Part shown: positions 1 through 12,660 of the stretch, in pieces
Layout of the letters: each line of letters opens with the position of its first letter
Position numbering within the stretch: the stretch's first letter is position 1
Source: a virus
Taxonomy: Duplodnaviria; Heunggongvirae; Uroviricota; Caudoviricetes
Direction: 5' to 3' (one strand)
Virus record (IMG/VR): IMGVR_UViG_2711768060_000001
Span: 1 to 12,660 of that record
DNA: 12,660 nucleotides
Made by a program: the position numbers and the translations under genes
The notes under the pieces: model-generated
What the model saw: the letters and a program-made list of their open reading frames with translations, nothing else
Database searches by the model: none
What the model was told of the DNA's origin: nothing

Positions 1-297
1 TACCGACACCACCGATACCAGCACCGCACACAGTGCATCCGCCGATGTACCGTCATAACCTGTTTTTGCTGCAATCCAGGCTGACAGCACGCGCGCTCCC
101 AGCACGCCGACAATGAACGACACCAGAAAATGTGCCGCCACCCGCCAGGCTGAAAGCGCCTGCGGCATCGTTGCCACAAACAACGCTCCGGCGAACGCCC
201 CAAACACAATCCCGAAATCCGTCCCGGTAAACAGTCCGAATACCGTCGCCCCGCCGAGCGCAGCGGCTGTACCAGAACCGGATAAGGGTTCAGACAT
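1..297 (-). CDS. Partial ORF (3' end beyond window edge) for a Gly/Ala-rich multi-pass membrane protein; possible holin at the start of a lysis cassette
   Basis: ATG at 297-295 preceded by AGGAGA (revcomp of 300-310). Translation MSEPLSGSGTAAALGGATVFGLFTGTDFGIVFGAFAGALFVATMPQALSAWRVAAHFLVSFIVGVLGARVLSAW... shows about three hydrophobic segments. Position is downstream of Q-like gene, morons and terminators. Holin call is inferred from position and topology only. Confidence 0.5.
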   Translation of the reverse strand, partial: MSEPLSGSGTAAALGGATVFGLFTGTDFGIVFGAFAGALFVATMPQALSAWRVAAHFLVSFIVGVLGARVLSAWIAAKTGYDGTSADALCAVLVSVVSV

Positions 298-459
298 ACT
301 TTTTCTCCTGTAAAGAAAAAAGGGCCACCAGCAGCCCGCAAAAAAAACGCCCACCAAAGGCACCCGCAGATGCCTTTGGTGTGGAGTTATTTGATGTGCG
401 CCGGTCGTGGCGCGAGGAAGTGAAATAAGACTTACCTGAAATTAAGGTTAATCTTAGGG

Positions 460-488
460 TTTAAACCATTTTTAATGCTTAGTAATAT
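460..488 (+). promoter_or_regulatory. Candidate sigma70 promoter (TTTAAA-N17-TAATAT) for a short plus-strand transcript
   Basis: -35 TTTAAA at 460-465, 17-nt spacer, -10 TAATAT at 483-488; no ORF with RBS follows; intrinsic terminator about 55 nt downstream. Confidence 0.25.
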
Positions 489-494
489 GAACTC

Positions 495-572
495 GTCCCC
501 AGAAGGGGCCAATACTTATTCTTCTTCACGGACTTTGTCCCGCGGCGTTAATCCGACAGCCGCGCTTTTTTT
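495..572 (+). ncRNA. Candidate small RNA of about 80 nt between the promoter above and the terminator at 541-572
   Basis: No coding potential; internal hairpin CCCC-AGAA-GGGG (about 500-511); ends in stem CGCGGC/GCCGCG plus T7. Purely structural inference. Confidence 0.2.
541..572 (+). terminator. Rho-independent terminator (plus strand)
   Basis: Stem CGCGGC (541-546) / GCCGCG (559-564), 12-nt loop, followed by T7 at 566-572. Confidence 0.55.
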
Positions 573-608
573 GCGCCATATTCATCGCTGACTTATATGG
601 CATTGCCA

Positions 609-643
609 CACGGACATTATCAGTGTCCGTGTTTTCTTTTTTT
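609..643 (+). terminator. Rho-independent terminator (plus strand), second of a tandem pair
   Basis: Stem CACGGACA (609-616) / TGTCCGTG (624-631), 7-nt loop, followed by TTTTCTTTTTTT (632-643). Confidence 0.55.
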
Positions 644-652
644 GAATTCAGA

Positions 653-681
653 ATAAAAAAAACCGCCCAGTGGAGGCGGTT
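653..681 (-). terminator. Rho-independent terminator (minus strand), downstream of the tRNA genes
   Basis: Stem AACCGCC (661-667) / GGCGGTT (675-681) with the plus-strand A-run 653-662 giving a U-run after the hairpin on the minus strand. Confidence 0.55.
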
Positions 682-843
682 GGTCAATGCATGAGATCAA
701 TCATTTTTATTGTAATAGAAATCGAGGTGTCGGGTGCCTCCCGAAATATCCATCCCTACAACAGATATTGTGATTCCCCGTTAAACCACTATATAAACCA
801 CCCTCGCACTGAGGAACACCTCTGCGGTGCTGTTTACAACACC

Positions 844-905
844 AGAATGATGCATCACCGACCCTGCCAGGAAATACAAAATCTCCACCGATAATGCATC
901 ATTCT
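844..905. repeat. Perfect 13-bp inverted repeat CAGAATGATGCAT / ATGCATCATTCTG separated by 36 bp
   Basis: Arms at 844-856 and 893-905 are exact reverse complements; spacer contains CACCGA ... CCACCGA. Lies in a non-coding stretch between the tRNA genes and the terminators. Confidence 0.6.
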
Positions 906-1045
906 GCTGCCGTAAAAATTCAGCACTGAGGCTACACCCGACCTCAAATCATAGCCAGAGAACAGAATACCATTTAAACACAATCCGCTCCCACGTAATA
1001 AAAAATACGCCAGTGCTGTAATACAATAAGGCTTATTACAAATGT

Positions 1046-1120
<75 letters not shown>

Positions 1121-1123
1121 ATA

Positions 1124-1199
<76 letters not shown>

Positions 1200-1260
1200 A
1201 TTGGTTCTTCGGGGGAGCGATATCACCGATGAACAGGAGTTCCCCTCAGAACCGTTGCGC

Positions 1261-1288
1261 ATAATAACGGGCAAAAAAATTACTTCAA
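1261..1288 (-). promoter_or_regulatory. Candidate promoter for the tRNA-Thr/tRNA-Gly transcript
   Basis: On minus strand: -35 TTGAAG (1288-1283), 16-nt spacer, -10 TATTAT (1266-1261), then GC-rich GCGC discriminator; about 55 nt upstream of the mature tRNA-Thr 5' end. Confidence 0.35.
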
Positions 1289-1376
1289 CCAAAATAATCC
1301 GAAAAATAATCCCGGATTTGTAAATATATGCATATTTTTTATTTTTTCTAAAATAAAGAAATTACCAAATACACAT

Positions 1377-2423
1377 TTAACGATTATTTTTTATTTCAGT
1401 TACAGTCTGATTAAATCTCTCTTCTTCCAGTTCCACGCCAATCGCACGGCGTCCCAGTGAAAGTGCCGCTTTTATTGTTGAGCCTGAGCCCATGAAAAAA
1501 TCAGCAACCAAATCACCCGGACGGCTGCTGGCAGTAATTATCTGGCGCAACATATCGGCTGGTTTTTCACAGGGATGTTTGCCAGGGTAATACTGCACAG
1601 GCTTGTGCGTCCAGACATCCGTATACGGAACGGCAGCCGATACGGAAAAATAACGCCGCAGGGATTTGTACTCTTCCAGCAGGCTGGCATATTGCTGGTT
1701 CAGTTCACTGTATGTGCTGACCAGCTGGTGGTGTGGCTTTTCCGGTTCCCCGCGCTGATGTTTTTCTGCCGCAACACGCGCAAACAACACCTGCAATTTG
1801 TTGTAATCACCCTCGTTCGGTAATTGCCACTGACTGGTACCAAACCAGTGCGAAGCCATGTTTTTCTTTCCGGTGGCTTCCGCTATCTGTTTTGACGTTA
1901 TCCCCAGTGATTCACGCGCATCGCGAAAGTAAGAAATCAGCGGGGCCATGACGTGCTGTTTTAGCTCGCGCCCCTTTGCCGCATAGCCGTCATTTTTGGG
2001 CTGGTATGGCCCCTGATAATGTTCTGCAAACAGAATGCGTTCTGTTGCCGGGAAATACGCCCGCAGGCTTTCCTTGCTGCATCCGTTCCAGCGTCCGGAC
2101 GGCTTCGCCCAGATAATGTGGTTCAGCACATTAAAGCGTTCACGCATCATGATTTCGGTGTCAGATGCCAGGCGATGACCACAGAACAGGTAAAGACTTC
2201 CGGCAGGCTTCAGTACCCGCCAGAACTGCGCCAGACATCGGTCCAGCCATTTCAGATAATCATCGTCGCCCTTCCACTGGTTATCCCAGCCCTCGGGCTT
2301 CACTTTAAAGTATGGCGGGTCTGTGACTATCAGATCGACAGAGTTTTCCGGTATGGTCTGGATAAATTCCAGGCAATCAGCGTTGATTAACTCACAACTG
2401 GATATTTTTACAGTATTAGCCAT
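1377..2423 (-). CDS. Orphan DNA methyltransferase (N6-adenine or N4-cytosine, DPPY-type, beta-class motif order)
   Basis: 348-aa ORF with ATG start; motif IV TDPPY near the N-terminus (LIVTDPPYF) and motif I FxGxG near the C-terminus (DFFMGSGST). No restriction endonuclease partner nearby. Confidence 0.85.
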   Translation of the reverse strand: MANTVKISSCELINADCLEFIQTIPENSVDLIVTDPPYFKVKPEGWDNQWKGDDDYLKWLDRCLAQFWRVLKPAGSLYLFCGHRLASDTEIMMRERFNVLNHIIWAKPSGRWNGCSKESLRAYFPATERILFAEHYQGPYQPKNDGYAAKGRELKQHVMAPLISYFRDARESLGITSKQIAEATGKKNMASHWFGTSQWQLPNEGDYNKLQVLFARVAAEKHQRGEPEKPHHQLVSTYSELNQQYASLLEEYKSLRRYFSVSAAVPYTDVWTHKPVQYYPGKHPCEKPADMLRQIITASSRPGDLVADFFMGSGSTIKAALSLGRRAIGVELEEERFNQTVTEIKNNR

Positions 2424-2559
2424 AGATCAATAAGCACTTCTCTGATAGGCTCATACCGCTTTTGCGCAAAGCAGATGGGCCTGAGGTTTGCTTGTGACCC
2501 CAACGCACGAGCAGATGGCTGGCAGGTGCCGCTAACACCCACCAGCCGCCCATTACCAC

Positions 2560-2587
2560 AAATAAAAAAGCCTTCGCTAAGGAAGGC
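2560..2587 (-). terminator. Candidate rho-independent terminator (minus strand) between the small ORF and the methyltransferase gene
   Basis: Stem GCCTTC/GAAGGC (2570-2587) overlapping the TAG stop of ORF 2577-2894; plus-strand A-run 2562-2569 gives the U-run on the minus strand. Confidence 0.45.
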
Positions 2588-2894
2588 GTCTGTAACAACC
2601 GAACTGATAATCTGCCAGACCCGCCATAACAAGCTGAGTCAGTATTAACTGGCAGCGTTCGCGTGAAAGGTAAGTATTCTGCGCAATTTCCCCGACGGTC
2701 GCCGGTTCGGTGACGCTTAATTCATTAAACACCACTCTGGCAGTTTCGGTCATATCCTGCTGTTTTAGCATGTCTTTTTCCCTTTTCTGGTTAACGTGAC
2801 ATACCATTAACTCTTGTCGGAACAGCCAGCAAGCTGAAAGACCAGTATTCGCAACCACCAGCGCGTTTAATGTTCTGTACCGTTTTTCTGACAT
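2577..2894 (-). CDS. Small hypothetical protein, possibly winged-helix/HTH-like; start uncertain
   Basis: 105-aa ORF; the ATG at 2894 directly abuts the terminator U-tract with no SD. Internal ATG at 2771 has AAGGGA 8 nt upstream and would give a 64-aa product (MLKQQDMTETARVVFNELSVTEPATVGEIAQNTYLSRERCQLILTQLVMAGLADYQFGCYRRLP). Confidence 0.45.
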   Translation of the reverse strand: MSEKRYRTLNALVVANTGLSACWLFRQELMVCHVNQKREKDMLKQQDMTETARVVFNELSVTEPATVGEIAQNTYLSRERCQLILTQLVMAGLADYQFGCYRRLP

Positions 2895-2925
2895 AAAAAA
2901 AAACCTGCCAGGCGACAGGTTTTTT
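2895..2925 (-). terminator. Strong rho-independent terminator immediately downstream of the Q-like gene (tR'-like)
   Basis: Hairpin ACCTG-CCAGGCGA-CAGGT (2903-2920) flanked by A9 (2895-2903) and T5 (2921-2925); on the minus strand the hairpin is followed by U9. Confidence 0.6.
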
Positions 2926-2975
2926 GCTTACTTTGCCATCGCGTAAAAAATCGGCAAAATATCAGATTTGCACGA

Positions 2976-3004
2976 AATATATGCCTTTTAATCTACTTTT
3001 GCAA
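2976..3004 (-). promoter_or_regulatory. Candidate late promoter (pR'-like) overlapping the 3' end of the Q-like gene
   Basis: On minus strand: -35 TTGCAA (3004-2999), 17-nt spacer, -10 TATATT (2981-2976); predicted transcript of about 70 nt ends at the terminator 2895-2925. Confidence 0.35.
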
Positions 3005-3677
3005 TACCTTGCCTGGACAATATCGTCTTTTGTTTCGAACGTGTTCTCGCCGCAAACAATAAAGCTTCGCTATCCAGCTGATGAAAAATGTGTTTCATTG
3101 CAACCCAGTGACCAGTAAATGTTTTGGACCAGTTTTTGGTTGTTATTCCCGCCAGTAATGCCAGATCCTGGTATTCATAACCTTCTCCACCAAAAAGTTC
3201 TGCTTTTACTGCCTGCGCCGCCAGCCAGATTAATTTTTTCAGGCGTTCCCGTGTTTTCTCTGCAATTTTCCTGTTGCCAGAATGAGCCTTAAACTCTTCC
3301 CATGCCCAGCGGGTTATGGTGACCTGATACTCCCAGCAAATATTTCCGCTGTAACACCACAACAACCAGGTTTTATGAGGTTCTTCAAGAGACAGAACAG
3401 CCCGTCGCCATGAGGATGTCGAAAACTCAACCTGACTTACCAGAGGAATTGACGTCCCCTTCGCCAGCGATTGTTTCCCCGGGATTGGTGGATTATCCCG
3501 CGTGATAATTTTTCCAGTCACTTCATCGCGGTACCGGATTTTTTTACGCCTGTAACGCCCTGTATCGAACATGGCATTCTTCTGCCAGGCTTCAAGCTGA
3601 CCTTTTGTTGCCCCACTCAAATCGGCGGTGGCGATAATGAGCTGCTCACGAACAAACTGTAAATACTGGTTATTCAT
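2988..3677 (-). CDS. Putative late-gene antiterminator (Q-like)
   Basis: ORF track start at 3683 is GTG; the ATG at 3677 overlaps the rusA stop (ATGA). Product about 229 aa. Q assignment rests on synteny (after rusA and a YdfU-like gene, directly before a promoter plus terminator) and on recalled size of Qin-type Q proteins, not on a verified motif. Confidence 0.55.
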   Translation of the reverse strand: MNNQYLQFVREQLIIATADLSGATKGQLEAWQKNAMFDTGRYRRKKIRYRDEVTGKIITRDNPPIPGKQSLAKGTSIPLVSQVEFSTSSWRRAVLSLEEPHKTWLLWCYSGNICWEYQVTITRWAWEEFKAHSGNRKIAEKTRERLKKLIWLAAQAVKAELFGGEGYEYQDLALLAGITTKNWSKTFTGHWVAMKHIFHQLDSEALLFAARTRSKQKTILSRQGIAKVD

Positions 3678-4039
3678 GCGCACTCCAGCTCTGTGATTTT
3701 TATCCCCAACCGACCACCAGGAACGACCTGACCGCGCACAATATTAATTTCATCAAACTGCTCGTCGTCTATGAGCAGCCCCGCATGCGTCAGCGCATCC
3801 AGTGGTGCTTTCAGGATATTGTCCAGATCACGACGGCGTTTATCCGGTGGCTCTGCAATAATCTTTATCGCCAGCCTTCCGGACAGATTTAATTTCAGCC
3901 GCTGCTGGCGAACAATTAGCGCCACATCACGGCGATAACGCTCACCGACTTTTGATACAAAATATGTGCTGCCACGACGCCGCCAGTAAGTATTCACCGT
4001 CGGCGGATAAGGCAAAACAAATTCTATGCGTTCGGTCAT
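3674..4039 (-). CDS. rusA: RusA-family Holliday junction resolvase
   Basis: 121 aa with RusA hallmarks: LPYPPTVNTYWRRRG near the N-terminus, PDKRRRDLDNILKAPLDALTHAG, C-terminal GGRLGIKITE; about the same length as E. coli RusA. Confidence 0.9.
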   Translation of the reverse strand: MTERIEFVLPYPPTVNTYWRRRGSTYFVSKVGERYRRDVALIVRQQRLKLNLSGRLAIKIIAEPPDKRRRDLDNILKAPLDALTHAGLLIDDEQFDEINIVRGQVVPGGRLGIKITELECA

Positions 4040-5095
4040 TTATGCTTTCCACTTCAGGACACCCGAATTTCTCGCGTGCATTAAAAAACGAATCAGCAAC
4101 AACAGCTGGCTGCCGTGTTTTTCTTCAAAATCTTTTACTCCGGCGTGCAGTTCGTTATGACATTTACGGCACAGCGGAATAACAAACAAATCATCAGCCT
4201 TTGTTCCCATCCCTCCCAGTCCATGACCAATGATGTGATGCGGATCATCTGCCTGATTGCCACACGTCAGGCATTTCTGTGTTTTTACCCAGCGCGTGTA
4301 TACAGGCATCTCTTCCCGTTGTGGTTTCTGGCGCTGGAGATACTGAGCCGGTGACTCCGGATCAACGGCAATGCTGACCACCGTCTTTTCCTGTGGCGGG
4401 TTTTGCTGGTGGGCGTGAGGCAGCGGCGCAAGATTTTTTGTGCGCTGTTTCAGTATGCTGGTGGCGGTCTGTTCTCCCGGTACGATGTCGCTTTCGCGGT
4501 ACACCGAGCGAATTTTTTCCGCACGCAACCCCAGAGAACGACGTAATACTACCTCCGGTAGTGCGTCCGCCACCTGATTGCAGACCGCCCACCAGGATAA
4601 TTCAGCCAGCGATAATTCCCGCTCCTGTGTGCCATTCACTGCATGGCGTATGACGTCAATCATCCATGCTGACAGGTTTTGGTGAGCAAGTTGCCCGAGT
4701 GATTCTGAGGTCTGGTCACGCAACTGGTTGTCGCAGTGCCAGCACAATACCATCGCGCCGGTGCCGTAACGATATATGACGGTTTCACTGTGATGATAAT
4801 CGCCGTGTGGCCACTGGCAGGATTTAATATGGCGCAACAGCCAGTCAGACAATGCACCAGCACCACCGGCAGCACGAATTACCCGCTCATCGCTGAAAAA
4901 TGGCAGTAATGATTTATCTTCCGCCAGCGGCTGGCGAACGGCAGGAACGACTCCGGACGGCAGACCGCGCATACTTTTCGGTTCCGGTTCCACCAGTACT
5001 CTGCCGTTATGGAATACCTGCATGGATTCACGGCCAGGCTTAACGATAACCAGTCCGAGTTCCGGTACCAGAACAGGTCGAAGCAATACCCGCAT
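4040..5095 (-). CDS. ydfU: YdfU-like prophage protein (DUF968-like) with a C-terminal Cys/His HNH-like motif
   Basis: 351 aa; ATG at 5095 with GGAGG 5 nt upstream; C-terminus CLTCGN...DPHHIIGHGLGGMGTKADDLFVIPLCRKCHNELH. Family name recalled from Qin-prophage YdfU (similar length), not searched. Confidence 0.7.
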   Translation of the reverse strand: MRVLLRPVLVPELGLVIVKPGRESMQVFHNGRVLVEPEPKSMRGLPSGVVPAVRQPLAEDKSLLPFFSDERVIRAAGGAGALSDWLLRHIKSCQWPHGDYHHSETVIYRYGTGAMVLCWHCDNQLRDQTSESLGQLAHQNLSAWMIDVIRHAVNGTQERELSLAELSWWAVCNQVADALPEVVLRRSLGLRAEKIRSVYRESDIVPGEQTATSILKQRTKNLAPLPHAHQQNPPQEKTVVSIAVDPESPAQYLQRQKPQREEMPVYTRWVKTQKCLTCGNQADDPHHIIGHGLGGMGTKADDLFVIPLCRKCHNELHAGVKDFEEKHGSQLLLLIRFLMHARNSGVLKWKA

Positions 5096-5096
5096 G

Positions 5097-5375
5097 TTAC
5101 CTCCAGATGCGTTGCTGGAATGTGCGGGATGGACGTGGTGGGCGTTCGGAATAAGGAAGCCTGACGGAAATTATCCAGTGTCGGAAGTCAAGACTGAGGT
5201 CTTTCCTGACCTCGCGTCCGCGCCTGCGATAACACTGAATCAGCCATTCGGCCTGTTCTTCAGTGCACGGATCATGCTGGTACCAGTCAGTTTTAAAGAC
5301 GTGTGAACGCCGCCCGTACCGGATGGCAGGGTCGGCTGAGTTATCAGAATTGTGAAATTTGGTCTTGTGCGCCAT
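5097..5375 (-). CDS. Hypothetical nin-region protein; start uncertain (ATG 5375 or TTG 5429)
   Basis: ORF track start at 5429 is TTG; first ATG at 5375 gives 92 aa (MAHKTKFHNSD...). The TAA stop at 5097-5099 lies 1 nt from the start of the next gene. Confidence 0.5.
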   Translation of the reverse strand: MAHKTKFHNSDNSADPAIRYGRRSHVFKTDWYQHDPCTEEQAEWLIQCYRRRGREVRKDLSLDFRHWIISVRLPYSERPPRPSRTFQQRIWR

Positions 5376-5444
5376 CTGTTTTCTCTGCTGGCGCAGCAGG
5401 TGCCAGTTGTTCAGGCTGGCGTGCGGCAATATTGTCTCTGATTT

Positions 5445-5475
5445 CTGTTGTCGTCAACAGGCAGCGTGCTATCAT
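5445..5475 (+). promoter_or_regulatory. Candidate promoter with overlapping palindrome for the parDE-like operon
   Basis: Palindrome CTGTTG-TCGT-CAACAG (5445-5460) overlapping -35 TTGTCG (5448-5453); 16-nt spacer; -10 TATCAT (5470-5475); about 35 nt upstream of the antitoxin ATG. Confidence 0.35.
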
Positions 5476-5510
5476 CGAATAGTGTTCTATCCTACTCCGT
5501 GAGGTTTACC

Positions 5511-5768
5511 ATGCGTACAACCCAACAATTCAGCATTACATTAACTAACGAGATGGCTGACATGGTGCGCGCCCGTGTGGCTTCCGGTGCCTATGCTTCA
5601 GAAAGCGAGGTCATTCGTGAAGGGCTTCGCGCACTGAATGAGCGCGATAAAGCAATCGAAGCGTGGTTAACGCATTCAGCCGCCCCCTCTCTTGATTCTA
5701 TCCGCGAAAATCCAAACAACGGACGCTCCATTTCACAGGTTCGCGCCGCGATTCGATCCGGGAAGTAA
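5511..5768 (+). CDS. parD: ParD-family (ribbon-helix-helix) antitoxin
   Basis: ATG at 5511 with GAGG 8 nt upstream (ORF track start 5448 is a non-ATG extension). 85 aa, motif YASESEVIREGLRALNERD typical of ParD antitoxins; directly upstream of a ParE-like toxin. Confidence 0.8.
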   Translation: MRTTQQFSITLTNEMADMVRARVASGAYASESEVIREGLRALNERDKAIEAWLTHSAAPSLDSIRENPNNGRSISQVRAAIRSGK

Positions 5769-5773
5769 TCTGC

Positions 5774-6073
5774 ATGACATATGAAGTCATCATTACTCCT
5801 GAGGCCGAACAACAAATAATCAACCTGCACAGATATATAACGGAGAAAGCAGGAAGCGTCATTGCTGACAATTATGCCAATGCGCTTCTTGATTATCTTG
5901 ATGGGTTTTCTACATTCCCGCATCGGGGCAATAAACGCGATGATATTCGCCAGGGGATGCGGGTAACTCATTTCCGCCACAGAACGATTATTGCTTTTGC
6001 CGTTGATGGCAGAAAAGTCTTTATTGTCGGTATCTATCATGGTGGGCAAAGTTATGAAACCGATTTCTTATAA
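5774..6073 (+). CDS. parE: ParE-family toxin
   Basis: 99 aa, 5 nt after the antitoxin stop; ParE/RelE-fold pattern (MTYEVIITPEAEQQIINLHRYI ... RKVFIVGIYHGGQ). Confidence 0.85.
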   Translation: MTYEVIITPEAEQQIINLHRYITEKAGSVIADNYANALLDYLDGFSTFPHRGNKRDDIRQGMRVTHFRHRTIIAFAVDGRKVFIVGIYHGGQSYETDFL

Positions 6074-6156
6074 ACTTTTACCCACATCATTCCGGTGTTA
6101 GAATAAACCGTCCGCCCCCTCTCTTACTGGCGGATTCGTAGGCTATATAAATCAAA

Positions 6157-6190
6157 GATCCCGGCTCATGTTTGTGCCGGGATCTTTTTT
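6157..6190 (+). terminator. Rho-independent terminator after parE, placed between convergent genes
   Basis: Stem GATCCCGGC (6157-6165) / GCCGGGATC (6176-6184), 10-nt loop, T6 at 6185-6190. Confidence 0.6.
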
Positions 6191-6197
6191 CGGCGAT

Positions 6198-6281
6198 TTA
6201 TCCCCAGCGGCAAATCGAATACACCACCAGCGCCACAGCCATTGCGATTCCTGCCGTTGTAAATGCCTCAGGCCAGGTCAT
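6198..6281 (-). CDS. 27-aa hydrophobic single-helix peptide, translationally coupled to the upstream 301-aa gene
   Basis: Not in the ORF track (under 60 aa). ATG at 6281-6279 overlaps the TGA stop of ORF 6278-7183 (ATGA); GGAGGA lies 10 nt upstream. Translation MTWPEAFTTAGIAMAVALVVYSICRWG, TAA stop at 6200-6198. Confidence 0.35.
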   Translation of the reverse strand: MTWPEAFTTAGIAMAVALVVYSICRWG

Positions 6282-7183
6282 CGTAAAACATCCTCCACAC
6301 CAACCAGTCCGTTCTGCTTCAGATATTCCATCGCCTTATCAGGTAGATTGCTTGATTTATTGACGCTTTTTAACGAACTGGCTAATCGCTTAACCAACAT
6401 TGTTAATTCGTTAACCTGTTTTCCGGATGCTTGTGGATTGTCAGTTTTACCAGAAGTGGCGGTACAGTCGGCGTTCCCACTCTTCACCTCCTGCGGCGGC
6501 TCCGGTAGCGGCATCCAGTACAAGGCGTTCCCTAACCACGATAAAGTGCCGTCGCTCAACTCCACGTATTCCCCTTGTACCTGTCCTGCCATATACTCGC
6601 CGTGCTTTGAATAAATTAAAACCCAATCATCTTGCGCGGGAATCCGCTCACTACAGCTTATCCAACCATCCTTAGTTGCCGGGGAGCTGGTTGACGAATT
6701 CTTATTTTCCCGAAAGTTTCCGGCCTGAAACATAGCGGCGCGGTGACACCAGATAATCCAGCCAATCGCCATATCCCATGCCATGTATTCGCTACCGCCA
6801 TTTTTTGCCCTGCGGCGATCTACAGAATCCCCGAAATGCTTCTCCATAAATAACTCATAGGCAGCCCGTTCATCCGGCACTACCAGCATTGGCGGCGTGG
6901 CGTATAGCTTACGGGTCTGAACACCTGCCCCCTGGCATTTCTCTTCCTCAACAAATCTTTCGAAAGCATATTCCCCGCAATCTTCCCATTCTCCCCATTC
7001 ATCATATTCTGCATCCCACTGGCGATACTGATATGCCACCGGTTCTGCTACCAGCGATGCCAGCGCGATACGAAACACATTAGCAAGCAGGCTATTTGAA
7101 GATTGGTTATCGTGCGCCGCGTCGCTCAGGAAGCCAGTGATGAACGATTTAATCTCCACGTTTTTTCTGGTAATAGTGGTCAT
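6278..7183 (-). CDS. Hypothetical prophage protein (301 aa); C-terminal half may be DUF551-like
   Basis: ATG at 7183 with GAGGA 8 nt upstream; start overlaps the stop of the upstream 69-aa ORF (ATGA). Trp/acidic-rich middle (YQYRQWDAEYDEWGEWEDCGEY); the domain guess is from memory and low confidence. Confidence 0.75.
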   Translation of the reverse strand: MTTITRKNVEIKSFITGFLSDAAHDNQSSNSLLANVFRIALASLVAEPVAYQYRQWDAEYDEWGEWEDCGEYAFERFVEEEKCQGAGVQTRKLYATPPMLVVPDERAAYELFMEKHFGDSVDRRRAKNGGSEYMAWDMAIGWIIWCHRAAMFQAGNFRENKNSSTSSPATKDGWISCSERIPAQDDWVLIYSKHGEYMAGQVQGEYVELSDGTLSWLGNALYWMPLPEPPQEVKSGNADCTATSGKTDNPQASGKQVNELTMLVKRLASSLKSVNKSSNLPDKAMEYLKQNGLVGVEDVLR

Positions 7184-7389
7184 TTGTTAATCCTCAAAAC
7201 TTTATGCCCGGGTGCAAAAGCACGCGTTTTGTCTTTGCTTATTCGCCAACCATCCTTGCGCGCCTCTTTTGCACAGCCAGCCCATGACGTACCGATATAC
7301 TCACCAAAGTCTGGCGACTGATATTTGCCATCCGTACACTGGCGGCAATCACAATAGAGATGCATGGTATAACTTGCGGCAATACCCAT
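7180..7389 (-). CDS. Small Cys-rich (putative zinc-binding) hypothetical protein
   Basis: 69 aa, MGIAASYTMHLYCDCRQCTDGKY...GTSWAGCAKE; ATG directly follows the upstream TGA stop (TGAATG) with AAAGGAGG SD. Confidence 0.65.
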   Translation of the reverse strand: MGIAASYTMHLYCDCRQCTDGKYQSPDFGEYIGTSWAGCAKEARKDGWRISKDKTRAFAPGHKVLRINK

Positions 7390-7749
7390 TCAGCCTCCTT
7401 TGATGCCAGTGTTTACAACCAGGCAGGCCTCTTTGAGTATCCAGTCAACAGCGTCTTTCCATGCTCCGGTTTCGACTGGCGGATTTTCACGCTTAACCTG
7501 TTCATAGAAGCGCACTGCTTTAACCAGTCCTTCTGATGTCACCGGGGCTGGCGTGGCAGTGAATAAGGCCTGAATCTCATAGCTCGGCCTGTCGTTGCAA
7601 TCCTCTTTTGTCGGTACATATTTCCAGTCACCAACCCACATCTTCTCCTGAAAGTCCGTAACGCCTTTTTTCACATAGCGATATCTCCATGCAACTGGTT
7701 TTGCCTGCCCTACCGTTTCATGCCCTTCCTGATAATTAATCTCGCTCAT
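7390..7749 (-). CDS. Hypothetical prophage protein (119 aa)
   Basis: ATG at 7749-7747 overlaps the stop of the upstream 58-aa ORF (ATGA); no recognised motifs. Confidence 0.7.
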   Translation of the reverse strand: MSEINYQEGHETVGQAKPVAWRYRYVKKGVTDFQEKMWVGDWKYVPTKEDCNDRPSYEIQALFTATPAPVTSEGLVKAVRFYEQVKRENPPVETGAWKDAVDWILKEACLVVNTGIKGG

Positions 7750-7922
7750 TCATCGCCCCACTCATCACAATATGCTTCGACAGGTGTTTTTCCTGCTTCG
7801 TAGTCATCACGCCAGGCTTCAGCATCAGCAGCACTTCCACCACGTAACTCTGCATAATCCATTAACAGTTCATGCCATTCTTCAAAACTGACGTTGTATT
7901 TAGTTGAACCAAAATCAGCCAT
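7746..7922 (-). CDS. Small acidic hypothetical protein (58 aa)
   Basis: Not in the ORF track. ATG at 7922 preceded by GAGGAGGAAG; translation MADFGSTKYNVSFEEWHELLMDYAELRGGSAADAEAWRDDYEAGKTPVEAYCDEWGDE; its stop overlaps the next start (ATGA). Confidence 0.5.
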   Translation of the reverse strand: MADFGSTKYNVSFEEWHELLMDYAELRGGSAADAEAWRDDYEAGKTPVEAYCDEWGDE

Positions 7923-8097
7923 TTTGTTCTTCCTCCTCGTCTTTTATTTCGTGATATGAGTAATTGCAGTAGTTAAAGAAAATTTCTTTTGCTTCGTCAT
8001 GAATTTCATCAGGTGTTGCGTCATCGTCCACTTCGAATACATCCTCAAAATCTCCACCAGCTATTCCCGTTTCAATAATTATTTTGAACTTTCGCAT
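7915..8097 (-). CDS. Small highly acidic hypothetical protein (60 aa)
   Basis: ATG at 8097; product is rich in D/E (…DFEDVFEVDDDATPDEIHDEAKE…KDEEEEQNG); 3' end overlaps the next ORF start by 8 nt. Confidence 0.55.
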   Translation of the reverse strand: MRKFKIIIETGIAGGDFEDVFEVDDDATPDEIHDEAKEIFFNYCNYSYHEIKDEEEEQNG

Positions 8098-8168
8098 TTC
8101 ACTACCGCCTTTTCGGGTGGCCTCCTGATGTTCTGAGGGTGCAGAAATCCCTCCTGTTAAGGATTAAT

Positions 8169-8185
8169 ATTTAGCAGTGCTAAAT
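8169..8185. repeat. AT-rich perfect palindrome ATTTAGCA-G-TGCTAAAT in the intergenic gap
   Basis: 8-bp arms around a central G at 8177; lies between the stop of ORF 8190-8936 and the start of ORF 7915-8097. Confidence 0.5.
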
Positions 8186-8189
8186 TTAA

Positions 8190-8936
8190 TTAACTGCGGG
8201 AAAAATCAGTAATCTGTCGAACAATATCCCGGTGCCTGTTCAACTCCCGCAGCGCGGCGCAGATACGCTCCCACTTCTGGACATGATTTTTCGCCCGACG
8301 CAGTTCGCGATTTGCCATATGCAGCGATGGCAAAACCAGGTCATCCGCTTGTGTTTCGGTGAACGATGGCAACGACTGCACAATGTCCGCCACAGTTTCT
8401 GTTTTAATATCTTCCTGTGTTGCAGCCTCCTGTACTGGTAACGCAACACCTGCGGGCTGAGGAAAGGCCTTACCATCAGTTTCCGCTACCGATGCTGCTT
8501 TCGGCTCTGCTGGTAAATTATCGCCCGGTATGCAGTAACGAAATTTACCGCCCTGATTTACGCGAATCAGACGACCTTTGCTGATTGCCATTGCCAGCGT
8601 TGAAGCCACTTTGCGGGATGTTGTACCGAACAGCGTAGCCAGTTCATCCGCCGTTTGTGGGCCACGTTGTTCAATCGTCGAAGTTAAATCGCTCTCCGAA
8701 ATTTTCGTCACTGTTGCCGTAGTGGTTTCTTCCGGCAGTACTGCCTGTGCTGGCTGTCCCTGCTGAACGTTGTTATCAGCCACACGCCAGGTGTATACGC
8801 TTCTATCAACGAAGCCAGCCTTTTTCAGTTCCCACAGCTCGTTCAGCACTTCTTCACGACTGATATCAAGTCGCGCTGCCAGTTCTACCGACGTGGCTTT
8901 TCCCATTGCTTTCAGTGCGTCAAAAACGGTCTCCAT
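8190..8936 (-). CDS. Prophage protein with N-terminal winged-helix-like region (DUF1627-like); start reassigned to internal ATG
   Basis: ORF track start 9002 has a poorly spaced SD and would overlap the P-like gene; the ATG at 8936 has GGGAGG 8 nt upstream and gives 248 aa ([45 protein letters not shown]...). Family name from memory. Confidence 0.7.
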
Positions 8937-8970
8937 TAAAATTTCCTCCCGGTAAAAATTACTTCTCAAC

Positions 8971-9636
8971 TCAAACAAACCCAGCCGCTTTCCGGCGTTC
9001 ATATTCCTGTTTCAGCAACTCAATTGGAGTTGGCCCCGACGGGCGTTCTGGTGCAGCCAGTTGCCGCCGTACGGGCGGAACACTGAAGCCGTCACCAACA
9101 TGCTTTGCCCATTTCGCCAGTTGCCGTTCTGCAAGTCGTTTTAACTCCCCTTCGGTCATCTGGCGCTCAATCCCCTTTGAACGCATCTCGAGGCAAATGT
9201 GATACAGCACAGGCTGAGACCACGGGTATTTATCGCTTCCGTCGTATCGCCAGGACTCGTTGCGCCAGCGGCGGTACTCCTCCATCACGGCATCCACAGT
9301 CAAACCAAACGGATTTGCCCCACTTTCCGAAATCAACGCCACAAACTCTGCCAGGTCAGGAGGCCATGTTTCACCCGCCCGACAACGCTCCATGCACTGG
9401 CGGCAGACCTGCCGGATTTGCTGCTCAGTCATCGCGCCAATCTGTGCAATCCAGAGCTTCGAAGGTGCGGCCCCGTTCTTCTGAGTCCAGCGGTTCGAAT
9501 AAACCTCCCCCATGAGTTCCCACAGCTTCCACGCCGTTTCCGTCGCTGATAAATCCGTTTTCACGTTCCCACTGCTCACGTGCTGCCCGAATTTCCTGAA
9601 CTGCCCGTGATGCGGTGCCACCTGGCGTTGCTGCAT
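8971..9636 (-). CDS. Lambda-P-like replication protein (helicase loader)
   Basis: 221 aa; ATG at 9636 with AAGGGGGTGA SD. Segments such as [27 protein letters not shown] and [20 protein letters not shown] parallel recalled lambda P segments (FVAWCREE, YPWKSNAHYWLVTNL, TDAELRRKAADELVHMTARI). Overlaps the O-like ORF by 212 nt in another frame. Confidence 0.75.
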
Positions 9637-10465
9637 GGCTCACCCCCTTGCTGACTGGTTTAACCTGCGCCCTGACGTGATTTACGTGACGGGCGAATTT
9701 CTGCTCCCACTGAACCTGCGTGAAAACTTTCCCCTCCGCTGCCCAGTAGTCCCGGAAGGCGGCAAGTTCAGCAGGTGTAAATTCCGGCTCCGGCAGAGCC
9801 ACTCCCCACAGTGCAGCCCGTTGTCGGAAATCGGGCGACGGATTCCAGCCGTCGGTCATCGGAAATTTTCCGATGGGTTCGCTCAGACCTTCCAGGTAAT
9901 CAGGTTCCGCTGCCTGCAACGGCGCGCCATTCGACTCACTGGTCGGAGCGATCTCGCGCACGCGCGCGCTATGTGTGGGGTTTAATTCTTTATCTGTATC
10001 TGTATCTGTCGTGACTCGTCGTGACATGTCGTGACATATGCGTGACTCGTCGTGACATTCCTCATTCTGTTTTCGTAATTTTTCCCTCTCACGCTGCGCT
10101 CTCTTGCGCTCTGCCGGGGATTTCGCGGTTTGAGAAACGTTACCGTTGTCCTCTTTCAGTACCTGGCGTTTTTCCCATCCAGTGATTAAATCTCCATCAA
10201 GCACCCGCCCCTGCATTGCTTGCAAAATTGAATCAATTACGTCTTCCGTCACATCAAGCGCACTTGCTAAATCTTCCGTCGTGACATCAATGTGACCCCG
10301 TAGTGACACGCCGTGACATGTCGTGACATTTCGTGACGCGCTAACCAGAAGGTGGATATACACCGCCATCACTGTTGCAATCGGCTGTCCTGACACCCTT
10401 GAAATTGTTCGCCACTTAGGGTCATTTGGCATGTCATGCCATAATCTGAGCCAGGCGTTGGCCAT
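9425..10465 (-). CDS. Replication initiator (lambda-O-like role) with iteron arrays embedded in its coding sequence
   Basis: ORF track start 10471 is GTG; ATG at 10465 has AGAGGTGA SD. Positioned directly upstream of the P-like gene. Contains two arrays of GTGAC-core direct repeats and a (TD)3 linker encoded by (TATCTG)3. Confidence 0.7.
   Translation of the reverse strand: MANAWLRLWHDMPNDPKWRTISRVSGQPIATVMAVYIHLLVSASRNVTTCHGVSLRGHIDVTTEDLASALDVTEDVIDSILQAMQGRVLDGDLITGWEKRQVLKEDNGNVSQTAKSPAERKRAQREREKLRKQNEECHDESRICHDMSRRVTTDTDTDKELNPTHSARVREIAPTSESNGAPLQAAEPDYLEGLSEPIGKFPMTDGWNPSPDFRQRAALWGVALPEPEFTPAELAAFRDYWAAEGKVFTQVQWEQKFARHVNHVRAQVKPVSKGVSHAATPGGTASRAVQEIRAAREQWERENGFISDGNGVEAVGTHGGGLFEPLDSEERGRTFEALDCTDWRDD
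9991..10056. repeat. (TATCTG)x3 tandem repeat followed by iteron array A: five (T)CGTGAC repeats at 10-11 bp spacing
   Basis: TATCTG x3 at 9991-10008; GTGAC cores at 10011, 10021, 10031, 10042 and 10052. An alternating CG tract (9951-9970) lies adjacent. Confidence 0.65.
10278..10337. repeat. Iteron array B: six GTGAC-core direct repeats at 10-11 bp spacing
   Basis: GTGAC at 10281, 10292, 10303, 10313, 10323 and 10333, same orientation as array A and about 225 bp from it; inside the N-terminal coding region of the O-like gene. Confidence 0.6.
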
Positions 10466-10536
10466 ACTCACCTCTTCTGATACCGAATCTTTTTACTCAC
10501 GAGTTTCCGGAAGCGATCCGGTATGAATATTGTCAG

Positions 10537-10962
10537 TCAATGTACCGCCACAGCATTTCCTGCCGGGCCACCACGATTCATCTGATCGAACAAAGTGATC
10601 GCTGATGCAACAAACTCGTCGATATCTTTCACCAGGCGCTCCCGTCGCTCGACAAGCTCCCGGTGATATTCCGAACTGTGGCTGCGCATCCAGGCCACCA
10701 GCGGAGGTGGCATTGCCTTTTCGATCGCTGGTAACAGCGCCTGAATTTTTTCAACAGCATCAGGAGTGTCTTTATCTAGCCAACGGAAAATCTTTTGGGT
10801 GTTGAGATAAAGTGCGTTGTGCTTGCTGTCGTTATGCAGAACCGGAAACGTCATACCCAGCTCAAAATAAGCCCTGGTTATTTCAGCTGCCGGAACTTTT
10901 TCACCGTCCGGATGCGCCCAGGCATTCATCGCCATGCGGATGTGTTCATGCTTGATTTTCAT
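10537..10962 (-). CDS. ydaT: YdaT-like protein (Rac prophage family; CII-like, toxic on derepression)
   Basis: 141 aa; begins MKIKHEHI and ends ...VH like recalled Rac YdaT; its start overlaps the stop of the upstream YdaS-like gene. Confidence 0.75.
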   Translation of the reverse strand: MKIKHEHIRMAMNAWAHPDGEKVPAAEITRAYFELGMTFPVLHNDSKHNALYLNTQKIFRWLDKDTPDAVEKIQALLPAIEKAMPPPLVAWMRSHSSEYHRELVERRERLVKDIDEFVASAITLFDQMNRGGPAGNAVAVH

Positions 10963-11218
10963 GAATCAACTCCGGCGCATTTGATGTGTTAGTCTTACAT
11001 CCAACAGGTAAACCGTCGGTTGGGTTAGGATAAATATCAGGGCGAATTTCATGCGGGGTAACTTCCCACTTCATTAACTGGCATAACGGAATTACCTGCT
11101 TTGGGGGAACGCCAAAGCTAAACCATTGCCAAACGGTCTGTTGAGCGACCCCCATATAGCGACCTATTTCAGCTTGAGTGTATTTCTGCCTAATTTTTTC
11201 GCGAGTGCTATCTAGCAT
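10946..11218 (-). CDS. ydaS: YdaS-like Cro-type HTH protein
   Basis: ATG at 11218 with GAGGAGGG SD (ORF track start 11272 is an upstream extension); motif GVAQQTVWQWFSFGVPPKQV...IRPD; divergent from the repressor gene. Confidence 0.7.
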   Translation of the reverse strand: MLDSTREKIRQKYTQAEIGRYMGVAQQTVWQWFSFGVPPKQVIPLCQLMKWEVTPHEIRPDIYPNPTDGLPVGCKTNTSNAPELIHENQA

Positions 11219-11253
11219 TTTGCCCTCCTCTGAAAACGATAAACAAAGCCTAC

Positions 11254-11288
11254 AATAAAAAACTGTATGCAATCAACAGTTTTTTATT
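11254..11288. promoter_or_regulatory. Operator-like perfect palindrome AATAAAAAACTGT-N9-ACAGTTTTTTATT in the divergent promoter region
   Basis: 13-bp arms at 11254-11266 and 11276-11288 are exact reverse complements; lies between the YdaS-like and repressor genes; the same CTGT/ACAG core recurs at 12288-12324. Confidence 0.5.
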
Positions 11289-11326
11289 GTGATGCTTTTA
11301 ACAGTATTTACCTGTAAAATTGAATA

Positions 11327-11728
11327 ATGATGAACGCCCTAGAAGTATCTATGTACAGAATCAGCAAGCTTCTTCAGGAAACTGGATGGAGCCAGGCTGA
11401 ACTTGCCCGTAGAATTGGTGTGACACAACAAACTGTTCAACAATGGGTCAGCGGTAAGGCCACACCTAAAGCCTCAAGTTTGGATAAACTGGTTGAGGTT
11501 ACAGGGCATCCATTGCATTGGTTTTTATTGCCTCCAGAAGAGGGGGAGCAAATTTTCACCCCTGACACGATGAAAATTGGTCCTCGCCAACGCGAACTGC
11601 TCCAAGCTTTTAGTGCGTTTCCAGAGGAAGACCAAGAAAAAATGCTTCAAGAAATCAAAGACAAGAAAAAATCAATGGAAGAAACCATTGCCCGGTGGTT
11701 GGCGGCACAAAAAAGCCGCCGGGCGTGA
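11327..11728 (+). CDS. Prophage repressor, XRE/CI-type HTH, lacking a LexA-like S24 protease domain (RacR-like role)
   Basis: 133 aa; N-terminal HTH (SQAELARRIGVTQQTVQQWVSGKATP); too short for a C-terminal autocleavage domain; divergent from YdaS-like; no SD, with -10-like TAAAAT (11315-11320) ending 6 nt before the ATG. Confidence 0.8.
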   Translation: MMNALEVSMYRISKLLQETGWSQAELARRIGVTQQTVQQWVSGKATPKASSLDKLVEVTGHPLHWFLLPPEEGEQIFTPDTMKIGPRQRELLQAFSAFPEEDQEKMLQEIKDKKKSMEETIARWLAAQKSRRA

Positions 11729-11755
11729 CCACTGTACAAGAAGAGGAGTTATGCC

Positions 11756-11947
11756 ATGAATACAGCCCTTTCTCCGATAGTTTCAGAATTCGAAACTACC
11801 GAACAAGAAAACAGTTACAACGAATGGTTGCGCGCTAAAGTGGCGTTAAGCCTTGCAGACCCTCGCCCCGCAATTCCACATGACGAGGTAATGGCTGAAA
11901 TGGAAAATCTTATTGCTCAAATTGCTGCAACTAACAGGAGCGAGTAA
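11756..11947 (+). CDS. Putative antitoxin of a RelE/ParE-type toxin-antitoxin pair
   Basis: 63 aa; GAGGAG SD; stop overlaps the start of the downstream toxin (TAATG). Assignment mainly by genetic context. Confidence 0.65.
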   Translation: MNTALSPIVSEFETTEQENSYNEWLRAKVALSLADPRPAIPHDEVMAEMENLIAQIAATNRSE

Positions 11948-12234
11948 TGTTACCCATTTTATGGCTACCATCTGCTCGCGATGATTTGCGTCAGATCGTA
12001 ACCTATATTGCTAAGGAAAACATTCCTGCAGCACGCAGACTAAAAATACGTATTGAAACGTCTGTTTTAGCCCTCTCTGAGCATCCATATCTATATCCGC
12101 TAAGTGATCGAGTATCCGGTTTGCGGGAAATTGTGGTTCACCCTAATTATATCGTGTTGTACCGAGTAGCAACTTCAAGCATTGAAATTGCGAATATTGT
12201 GCATGCCCGTCGACAATTTCCCTTCTCTATCTGA
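11947..12234 (+). CDS. RelE/ParE-superfamily toxin
   Basis: 95 aa; MLPILWLPSARDDLRQIVTYIAKENIPAARRL...EIVVHPNYIVLYRV...IEIANIVHARR fits the RelE/ParE pattern; translationally coupled to the antitoxin. Confidence 0.8.
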   Translation: MLPILWLPSARDDLRQIVTYIAKENIPAARRLKIRIETSVLALSEHPYLYPLSDRVSGLREIVVHPNYIVLYRVATSSIEIANIVHARRQFPFSI

Positions 12235-12250
12235 GCCGAACAATTTCCAT

Positions 12251-12277
12251 ACTCCCTCACTCGAGGGAGTTTTTTTG
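12251..12277 (+). terminator. Rho-independent terminator after the toxin gene
   Basis: Stem ACTCCCTC (12251-12258) / GAGGGAGT (12263-12270), 4-nt loop, T-run 12270-12276. Confidence 0.65.
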
Positions 12278-12287
12278 CCTAAAACAA

Positions 12288-12330
12288 CAATTAAAAACTG
12301 TTGACACAAAACAGTTTTTAATTGTAGATT
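12288..12330 (+). promoter_or_regulatory. Rightward early promoter overlapped by a 15-bp-arm operator palindrome (pL-like)
   Basis: Palindrome CAATTAAAAACTGTT-gacacaa-AACAGTTTTTAATTG (12288-12324); -35 TTGACA at 12301-12306 inside it; -10 TAGATT at 12325-12330 (18-nt spacer). Confidence 0.5.
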
Positions 12331-12509
12331 GTTTTTACCAACCCACCCCGCCCCACAGAACGCAGGGCAATACTTCGAGTTACCAGGCAGTGGTCAGGGG
12401 TTAAGTAGCCAGCCCGAGGCGTAAGAACATGACGGCAGGGTTCAACTTTAATAACTATGCAGCAGGTTTTTGTTCCGCTACCCCGGCGTTAAGGGGAAAT
12501 GAGGTCAAC

Positions 12510-12660
12510 ATGGATACTATCGATCTTGGCAACAACGAATCTCTGGTGTACGGCGTGTTTCCCAACCAGGACGGCACATTCACCGCGATGACGTATACCA
12601 AAAGCAAAACGTTTAAAACCGAAAATGGTGCCCGTCGCTGGCTGGAAAGAAACTCAGGTG
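12510..12660 (+). CDS. Partial ORF (continues beyond window), first gene of the rightward early operon; hypothetical
   Basis: ATG at 12510 with GAGG 6 nt upstream; open to the window edge (MDTIDLGNNESLVYGVFPNQDGTFTAMTYTKSKTFKTENGARRWLERNSG...). Confidence 0.55.
   Translation, partial: MDTIDLGNNESLVYGVFPNQDGTFTAMTYTKSKTFKTENGARRWLERNSG

Follow-up and report, generated by a model that had tools for sequence, protein, structure and literature searches.

The window analysed here is a stretch of 12,660 nucleotides from a virus of the Caudoviricetes (IMG/VR virus record IMGVR_UViG_2711768060_000001, positions 1 to 12,660), the whole of which is an Escherichia coli lambdoid prophage with its late genes all on the minus strand. 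Between the tRNA genes and the holin gene of this prophage, positions ~424-650 are probably a self-contained non-coding gene (a ‘moron’) that would be transcribed against the late operon and would make an Hfq-type small RNA (sRNA). The assignment is built from sequence anatomy, conservation and covariation, from the behaviour of the segment as a cassette, and from a homologous locus in the chromosome where an RNA 3′ end has been mapped. Its parts are held with different confidence: we are reasonably confident that the cassette is a transcribed sRNA gene, and a little short of evenly inclined to believe that its RNA works as an Hfq-type regulator in trans. The elements of the predicted gene, and the terminator that faces it, are as follows.

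424-459, plus strand: conserved upstream block, TAAGACTTAYC...AAATTAAGGTTAAT, seen in alignments and also in the chromosomal yodB-serU relative; possibly an UP element or regulator site
460-488, plus strand: candidate sigma-70 promoter, with −35 TTTAAA at 460-465, a 17-nt spacer and −10 TAATAT at 483-488
495-572, plus strand: predicted primary sRNA of ~78 nt, from the fold, covariation and a Term-seq 3′ end at the homologous U tract of K-12
495-510, plus strand: 5′ hairpin H1, GUCCCC AGAA GGGGCC, from the fold and covariation
511-529, plus strand: single-stranded U/C-rich stretch of 19 nt, AAUACUUAUUCUUCUUCAC, unpaired in the minimum free energy and centroid folds; candidate seed or Hfq-contact region
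530-540, plus strand: small hairpin H2, GGAC UUU GUCC, present in the folds, invariant, and found in the chromosomal relative as well
541-572, plus strand: terminator T1, stem 541-547/558-564, 10-nt loop UUAAUCCGAC at 548-557, U7 at 566-572
575-601, plus strand: inter-terminator hairpin CCAUAU...AUAUGG, from the fold of 573-643 (z = −5.9), in class A loci only
608-643, plus strand: terminator T2, stem-loop 608-632, tail UUUCUUUUUUU at 633-643
651-681, minus strand: terminator, stem 681-675/667-661, T run 660-655

In the mechanism that we propose, the sigma-70-type promoter would start an RNA near G495, a start placed from the position of the promoter, and T1 would end most transcripts at 566-572, giving a ~78-nt RNA with the 3′ end set at the last position of the U7 tract. 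T2 would act as a back-up terminator, catching read-through at 633-643 to yield a ~149-nt isoform. The RNA would be laid out as a 5′ hairpin, a U/C-rich single strand that serves as the seed, and a double hairpin with 3′ poly-U that serves as the chaperone-binding end. Made in the lysogen from its own promoter, it would act in trans on mRNAs or other sRNAs. Trans action through 511-529 with Hfq is suggested by this layout, by the exchange of seeds among relatives and by the chromosomal relative, both described below. The layout of an Hfq-binding module as defined by Ishikawa et al. (2012) is present in the sequence, with UUAUUCUUCUUCA at 517-528 followed by H2 and T1 and then by U7.

Two scans of IMG/VR with sequence patterns, a BLAST search of the annotated collections and a further scan, of species-representative genomes, yielded about 50 distinct related sequences; the figures for conservation and for covariation in H1 and T1 given below are from 28 distinct phage-type sequences. 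In these comparisons ~424-650 behaves as a cassette, its promoter and terminators being gained and lost together. In phage SerU-LTIIb, an LT-IIb toxin phage, the tRNA-to-holin segment is duplicated (locus L003, 3139-3708 and 4851-5614), and one segment carries the equivalent of ~430-650 while the other is without this block and has both flanks intact, including the minus-strand terminator. The two segments form a natural presence/absence comparison for the cassette. The cassette is also found paired with different lysis modules, of the M15-peptidase type and of the lambda S/R/Rz type (phage 683R6). Its constant core runs from ~424 to the T1 tail, and three classes differ in what comes after T1. 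Class A is window-like and has T2. In class B, T2 has another stem and follows a second copy of the small hairpin, GGAC(G/T)TTGTCC, and the U tract of T1 is interrupted (CUACUUUUC, against U7 in class A); with this tract broken, T2 may define the main product in class B. Class C keeps the promoter and T1, has no T2, and adjoins a minus-strand terminator and an odd tRNA-like gene. This gene, of 82 nt, lies between tRNA-Gly and the cassette (L012, 1469-1550; L048, 2535-2616; L112, 4964-5045; L118, 3299-3380), and ARAGORN calls it Val(aac) or Tyr(ata).

Conservation is distributed unevenly along the core. The −35 hexamer is 83% invariant and the −10 hexamer is invariant at T, A, _, _, A, T, with drift in the spacer (47% invariant) and the discriminator (33%) around them, a pattern that fits a promoter; the motif TTTAAA-N17-TANNAT occurs once in the window against 0.07 occurrences expected. 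Invariant columns make up 74% of the 511-529 stretch and 80% of the T1 loop against 14% of the sequence past T1, figures to be read in the light of the search patterns, which required 522-546 and thus made conservation there partly a matter of construction. H2 lies inside these patterns, so that no covariation is readable in it. The T1 loop is near-invariant among the phage copies and nearly identical in the chromosomal relative (UUAAUCUGAC); such conservation is unusual in a terminator loop and suggests a second functional site common to all members.

The pairing model of H1, H2 and T1 is paired in 97% of cells, compared with 41-55% when the partners are slid by 1-3 columns, and three of its pairs change on both sides.

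H1, columns 45-55: U-A in 15 sequences, C-G in 12
T1, columns 95-108: C-G in 19 sequences, U-A in 9
T1, columns 96-107: C-G in 9 sequences, U-A in 7, U-G in 1

None of 500 shuffles reached as high a covariation score, a result whose significance the shuffle control overstates, the compared sequences being closely related and the double-sided changes probably amounting to few events. T2 is kept in 48 of 63 distinct downstream sequences, and two of its stem positions show double-sided changes between classes A and B. At H1 columns 43-57 the pair is U-A in 14 sequences and U-G in the other 14, and these U-G pairs form on the plus strand only; the T2 stem likewise has a U-G wobble variant that is pairable on the plus strand only. 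If read on the minus strand, the U-G variants in H1, T1 and T2 become C-A mismatches, and T runs follow the T1 and T2 stems on the plus strand only. Taken together, the covariation, the plus-only U-G pairs and the plus-only T runs are reasons to place the selected structures in a plus-strand RNA.

The 5′ part of the predicted RNA is exchanged among members. Two IMG/VR loci, L143 and L153, have the same promoter and 3′ half with another 5′ half, in the same slot between tRNA-Thr/Gly and the holin gene. The 511-529 stretch is replaced by other sequences in both of these loci and in the chromosomal relative; the seed-variant members and the chromosomal relative nevertheless keep a 5′ hairpin, formed from unrelated sequence, and L143 and L153 fold to the same layout as the window copy.

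The relative just mentioned is a chromosomal locus of E. coli, flanked on one side by serU and on the other by yodB or, in genomes that lack yodB, by zinT; it shares 70-71% identity with the cassette over 153 nt.

L131 3060-3182, and K-12 NC_000913.3 about 2043059-2043181, plus strand: chromosomal relative, predicted RNA of ~89 nt with terminator

It has in common with the cassette the upstream block, a promoter-like TTTAAA-N17-TATGAT, the small hairpin, and the stem, loop and U tract of T1. It differs in its 5′ hairpin and single strand, which are unrelated in sequence, and in being without a second terminator; it converges on the host tRNA gene serU, whereas the cassette converges on the phage late operon. 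At an identity of at least 95% it is found in 5418 of 5426 complete E. coli genomes, and there is no annotated feature under it in the 12 records listed, nor at its position in K-12, E2348/69, WEC and MRY15-131. An Rfam search of the K-12 locus matched no model, and a permissive search gave chance-level matches only. In Term-seq data from K-12, an orphan 3′ end was reported at 2043181 (+), with flank AATTATGGACTTTGTCCCGCGGCTTTAATCTGACGGCCGCGTTCCTTTTTTGACTCAATTA, having 2241 reads in LB medium at an optical density (OD) of 2.0 and 1864 reads in M63 medium, and being absent in LB at OD 0.4 (Adams et al. 2021, PMC7815308). This position is the last U of the T1-homologous tract, which shows that the T1 homologue ends a plus-strand RNA in vivo in K-12. 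The proposal, made when the window was read from sequence only, of a plus-strand RNA of about 80 nt, with its own promoter and antisense to read-through of the late operon, is thus favoured by the comparative evidence, namely cassette linkage, promoter invariance, plus-only pairs and the mapped 3′ end of the relative.

Literature searches by gene names and by sequence met with no description of this RNA, and the portion of the enteropathogenic E. coli (EPEC) RIL-seq tables open to us has no entry at the serU locus. It is possible, though in our view doubtful, that a single undescribed sRNA family has branched into the phage cassette and the yodB-serU locus, its members retaining a common promoter (and hence a common input signal) and a common chaperone-binding 3′ module, which carries the conserved loop UUAAUCYGAC, while exchanging the 5′ seed. 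Were this true, prophages would be connecting new seeds to a regulatory circuit already present in the host, or competing with the host’s RNA over a chaperone or partner, and K-12 would carry an sRNA gene absent from its RefSeq annotation and from Rfam 15. The yodB-serU locus is the most valuable lead of this analysis, being a testable candidate for a core sRNA that is near-universal in E. coli, unannotated, and provided with a mapped 3′ end. The natural seed-swapped variants offer a way to ask how phages diversify host regulatory RNA.

Several points weigh against the reading of the cassette as an sRNA gene, in addition to the conservation imposed by the search patterns and the close relationship of the compared sequences, which were given above with the figures that they limit. 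The promoter named in the sequence-only reading, TTTAAA-N17-TAATAT, is present at 460-488 and conserved, but its match to sigma-70 is weak, with only 8 of 12 consensus positions and a 17-nt spacer, and it falls below the promoter-scan threshold. The K-12 3′ end could be that of read-through from the yodB mRNA, the stop codon of yodB lying 283 nt upstream, and the supplements of the Cappable-seq and SMRT-Cappable-seq studies contain no start-site coordinates matching the K-12 relative. When the seed was paired with other minus-strand RNA encoded in the window, the best duplex reached −15.8 kcal/mol, no better than shuffled seeds, whose mean was −15.6 kcal/mol.

The three intrinsic terminators that had been described between 460 and 690, two on the plus strand and one on the minus strand, were all recovered in place as hairpins followed by T runs by consensus scanning and RNA folding, and each has the layout of an intrinsic terminator, a G+C-rich stem-loop and then a U tract on the transcribed strand. 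The T1 stem, GC-rich and 6-7 bp long, was found by folding; the consensus scan permits loops of at most 8 nt and did not call T1 because its loop has 10 nt. T2 was placed by the scan at 608-632 (11 pairs, tail TTTCTTTTTT) and the minus-strand terminator at 681-661 (8 pairs, tail TTTTTTAT). The latter lies 9 nt past the T2 tail and is faced by both T1 and T2, making three terminators in 140 bp; its stem, CCGCC/GGCGG, is invariant and its loops are variable in all relatives. Over window positions 1-1500 the consensus scan found 8 terminator-like sites against 2.1 ± 1.6 in shuffles, and the strongest three such sites of the entire 12.6-kb window all lie inside 322-681. The ‘terminator density’ of the region is that of a junction between two convergent units. 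A second promoter for T2 (TTGCGC-N17-TATATG, 571-599) was considered and rejected, as it is weak and is not kept in relatives from enterotoxigenic E. coli (ETEC), which have TTACAT. We read T2 as the second terminator of T1’s own unit, rather than as the end of a unit with a separate promoter.

The sequence-only reading had found no open reading frame (ORF) here. Two short ones do exist, on opposite strands, so that the statement holds in the narrower sense that no conserved ORF is present.

487-591, plus strand: 34-codon ORF, not conserved, its ATG being lost in ETEC relatives or its frame shifted by indels in other relatives
526-687, minus strand: 53-codon ORF, not conserved among relatives

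The explanations that compete with an sRNA gene differ in which strand and which product they place under selection. If the plus-strand RNA acted as a cis-antisense RNA, it would pair with minus-strand transcripts heading for the holin gene, whether from tRNA-promoter read-through in the lysogen or from the Q-antiterminated late mRNA, and pairing or convergent polymerase collision would lead to cleavage or interference, tuning the leaky expression or the timing of the lysis genes. The cassette does converge on the late operon and lies ~200 nt before the start of the holin gene, its complementarity to the late transcript is perfect by construction, and AsxR likewise lies antisense to stx2AB (Tree et al. 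2014, PMC4104026). We nevertheless rate this as unlikely, since promoter and 3′ module are both retained by the chromosomal relative, which faces no late operon, the 5′ single strand is swapped among members in the same slot in the pattern of trans-acting seeds, and three minus-strand terminators (681-661, 381-352 and 337-322) already guard the holin gene; cis-antisense and trans action are in any case compatible and may coexist. A pure insulator is quite improbable. Under this explanation no functional RNA is made, and the hairpins serve solely to block stray transcription, from either side, in the space that separates the tRNA cargo from the lysis cassette. An insulator would account for the clustering of the three terminators, for the two more at 322-381 and for the retention of the minus-strand terminator where the cassette is absent. 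Apart from the cassette’s own promoter, however, there is no upstream plus-strand gene or promoter for T1 and T2 to stop; the promoter and terminators come and go jointly; class C keeps the promoter and T1 without T2; and an insulator would need neither the conserved unpaired 511-529 stretch nor the conserved T1 loop. The insulator, which the sequence-only reading had offered as its other option, is retained in a secondary role: the facing terminators do keep two convergent units apart, though their presence is accounted for by the units ending there.

Both of the remaining explanations turn to the minus strand. One is that the structures serve the late or tRNA transcript of the minus strand, perhaps by marking sites for processing or by stabilising it, which would agree with the equal folding of 460-700 on the two strands (z = −3.77 on the minus, −3.75 on the plus) and with the strongly structured neighbouring 650-1045 (minus strand, z = −5.8). 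This would require the U-G pairs of H1, T1 and T2 to become C-A mismatches and would leave the plus-only poly-T tails, the promoter-like conservation and the plus-strand location of the K-12 3′ end without explanation, and we consider it very unlikely. Finally, the region might be a decayed or mis-called protein-coding gene, as some genomes have a 132-codon minus-strand ‘hypothetical protein’ here; the Prokaryotic Genome Annotation Pipeline annotates WP_064226585.1 over the homologous region of ETEC1732 (L002 4233-4631, equivalent to window ~526-925, minus strand). That 132-codon frame crosses three terminator hairpins and homopolymer runs, has a translation low in information, and is broken by indels in the window and in other relatives, while the 34-codon plus-strand ORF loses its ATG or frame and the shared 3′ half stands in a different frame in the K-12 relative. 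We give this explanation next to no credence, and the coding readings of the 34-, 53- and 132-codon ORFs were all rejected as not conserved. WP_064226585.1 is probably a spurious gene call, and the cassette accounts for ‘hypothetical protein’ annotations wrongly placed here in RefSeq genomes.

As an sRNA gene, the cassette has close parallels among known prophage systems. In lambdoid prophages of enterohaemorrhagic E. coli (EHEC), the moron site past PR′ contains convergent sRNA genes that have a conserved 3′ part and a variable 5′ part (Tree et al. 2014, PMC4104026). Like these genes, which include the anti-sRNAs AgvB and AsxR, the cassette sits past Q and PR′ in the slot that separates the cargo from the lysis genes, converges on the late operon, faces a sense-strand terminator, has its own promoter and terminator at the sequence level, and has a conserved 3′ part and a differing 5′ part. 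Unlike AgvB and AsxR, it accompanies tRNA genes rather than toxin genes and has a relative in the E. coli core chromosome, and its predicted RNA of 78 nt (with the 5′ end placed from the promoter) is longer than their 51-60 nt. A cmscan search with the gathering score gave no match to AgvB (RF02702) or AsxR (RF02703), and relaxing the limit to E ≤ 10 over 280-1060 brought up none either. The Rfam covariance-model search that had been suggested for this region returned no family for it: at the gathering score there were two tRNAs only, and a permissive search of 280-1060 gave chance-level matches only (miRNA models on the hairpin at 828-926 and terminator-only likenesses), with no AgvB, AsxR, Esr41 or Pas-like family among them. 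The cassette itself drew no match to STnc100 either.

A second set of parallels comes from EPEC. PasA and PasC are Hfq-dependent prophage sRNAs of EPEC E2348/69 (Pearl Mizrahi et al. 2021, PMC8550237), and in a 2026 survey PasA, PasC and PasD1 typically adjoin the holin/lysozyme operon (Zhu, Shabalina and Storz 2026, bioRxiv 10.64898/2026.05.13.724894). PasA variants have a common 3′ end and divergent first 40 nt, and the Pas RNAs are reported to be enriched in pathogenic lineages. By locating the published sequence in the genome, we placed PasA of E2348/69 immediately before the holin gene, with the late genes on the other strand. The cassette resembles PasA in that the latter is ~84 nt long, sits directly upstream of the holin/lysozyme genes on the opposite strand and ends in an intrinsic terminator; it differs from PasA in its terminator and seed sequences and in the universal chromosomal relative of its family. 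A blastn search (word size 7, E ≤ 0.01) of window 299-1045 against the PasA, PasB, PasC and PasD loci of E2348/69 gave no match. In position, orientation and modular design the cassette thus conforms to a known kind; it stands outside the AgvB/AsxR and Pas families and is probably a new family within a known class. Prophage late-region sRNAs rewire host regulation in EHEC and EPEC, and the cassette would add a family that sits beside tRNA cargo.

The unit that converges on the cassette is ended by the minus-strand terminator at 651-681 and consists of the tRNA genes, which have promoter-like sites at 1352-1261, and a structured trailer. Downstream of tRNA-Gly, the 645-1045 segment (minus strand) is conserved and strongly structured (z = −5.8), with a hairpin of ~95 nt at 828-926. 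This trailer may be the sense partner of a convergent sRNA pair. It resembles STnc100/PasD (Rfam RF02076) in being a structured RNA of the sense strand, encoded after Q and before the lysis genes and closed by an intrinsic terminator; window 651-850 (minus strand) aligns over the full STnc100 model, and its 18-nt motif CGGGAGGCACCCGACACC (743-726) is identical to genuine STnc100 at 17 of 18 positions. In score, 651-850 (minus strand) reaches 19.2 bits against a gathering score of 47, and no relative of the window reaches the threshold; the genuine STnc100 of E2348/69 scores 123.6 bits. In the lysogen, the terminator at 651-681 would shield both the cassette and the holin gene against read-through. 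During lytic growth, Q-modified polymerase is expected to ignore it, as established lambda biology has it.

The wider setting on the minus strand, from Q to the holin gene, is as follows.

2988-3683, minus strand: antiterminator Q
3004-2976, minus strand: PR′-like promoter TTGCAA-17-TATATT, directly after Q
2925-2898, minus strand: tR′-like hairpin of 12 pairs with T runs on both sides, after the PR′-like promoter
1377-2423, minus strand: DNA methyltransferase, following a small ORF
1046-1199, minus strand: tRNA-Thr and tRNA-Gly
299-1045: gap of ~750 bp without annotated gene, holding the 460-690 region
381-352 (13 pairs) and 337-322, minus strand: pair of intrinsic terminators in tandem, immediately preceding the holin ribosome-binding site
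298, minus strand: start of the holin gene

The gap containing 460-690 is the Q-dependent ‘moron’ slot of the lambdoid late region, which in Shiga toxin (Stx) phages is the position of the stx genes, and the placement of the region between tRNA cargo on one side and lysis genes on the other had been described correctly from the sequence. The tandem terminators at 322-381 are kept in every relative examined, including those with a lambda-type S holin. The PR′-like promoter and the tR′-like hairpin (2898-3004) together suggest a short tR′-terminated leader RNA, comparable to lambda 6S RNA.

Window 300-1050 has 99.5% identity to four chromosome records, from the ovine strains ECL27977 and ECL27829, and ~87% identity to many ETEC and other genomes. 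Phage-type copies of the cassette are found in ~350 genomes, ~6% of complete E. coli genomes, including ETEC and enteroaggregative E. coli strains, and also in an LT-II toxin phage. None of the listed genomes with a phage-type copy is O157:H7, and E2348/69 carries the chromosomal relative only, a distribution that may be why the family is unreported in EHEC and EPEC studies. A 28-nt degenerate pattern matched E. coli, Shigella, E. ruysiae and one metagenome-assembled genome labelled Bacillota, and nothing further; the flanks of the Bacillota-labelled match read as the E. coli yodB-serU region.

At the other end of the window, positions 12287-12325 form a near-perfect palindrome of 39 nt and 16 pairs, ACAATTAAAAACTGTT...AACAGTTTTTAATTGT, with a terminator-like score on both strands. 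It overlaps a promoter-like site at 12301-12330 that agrees with the consensus at 10 of 12 positions.

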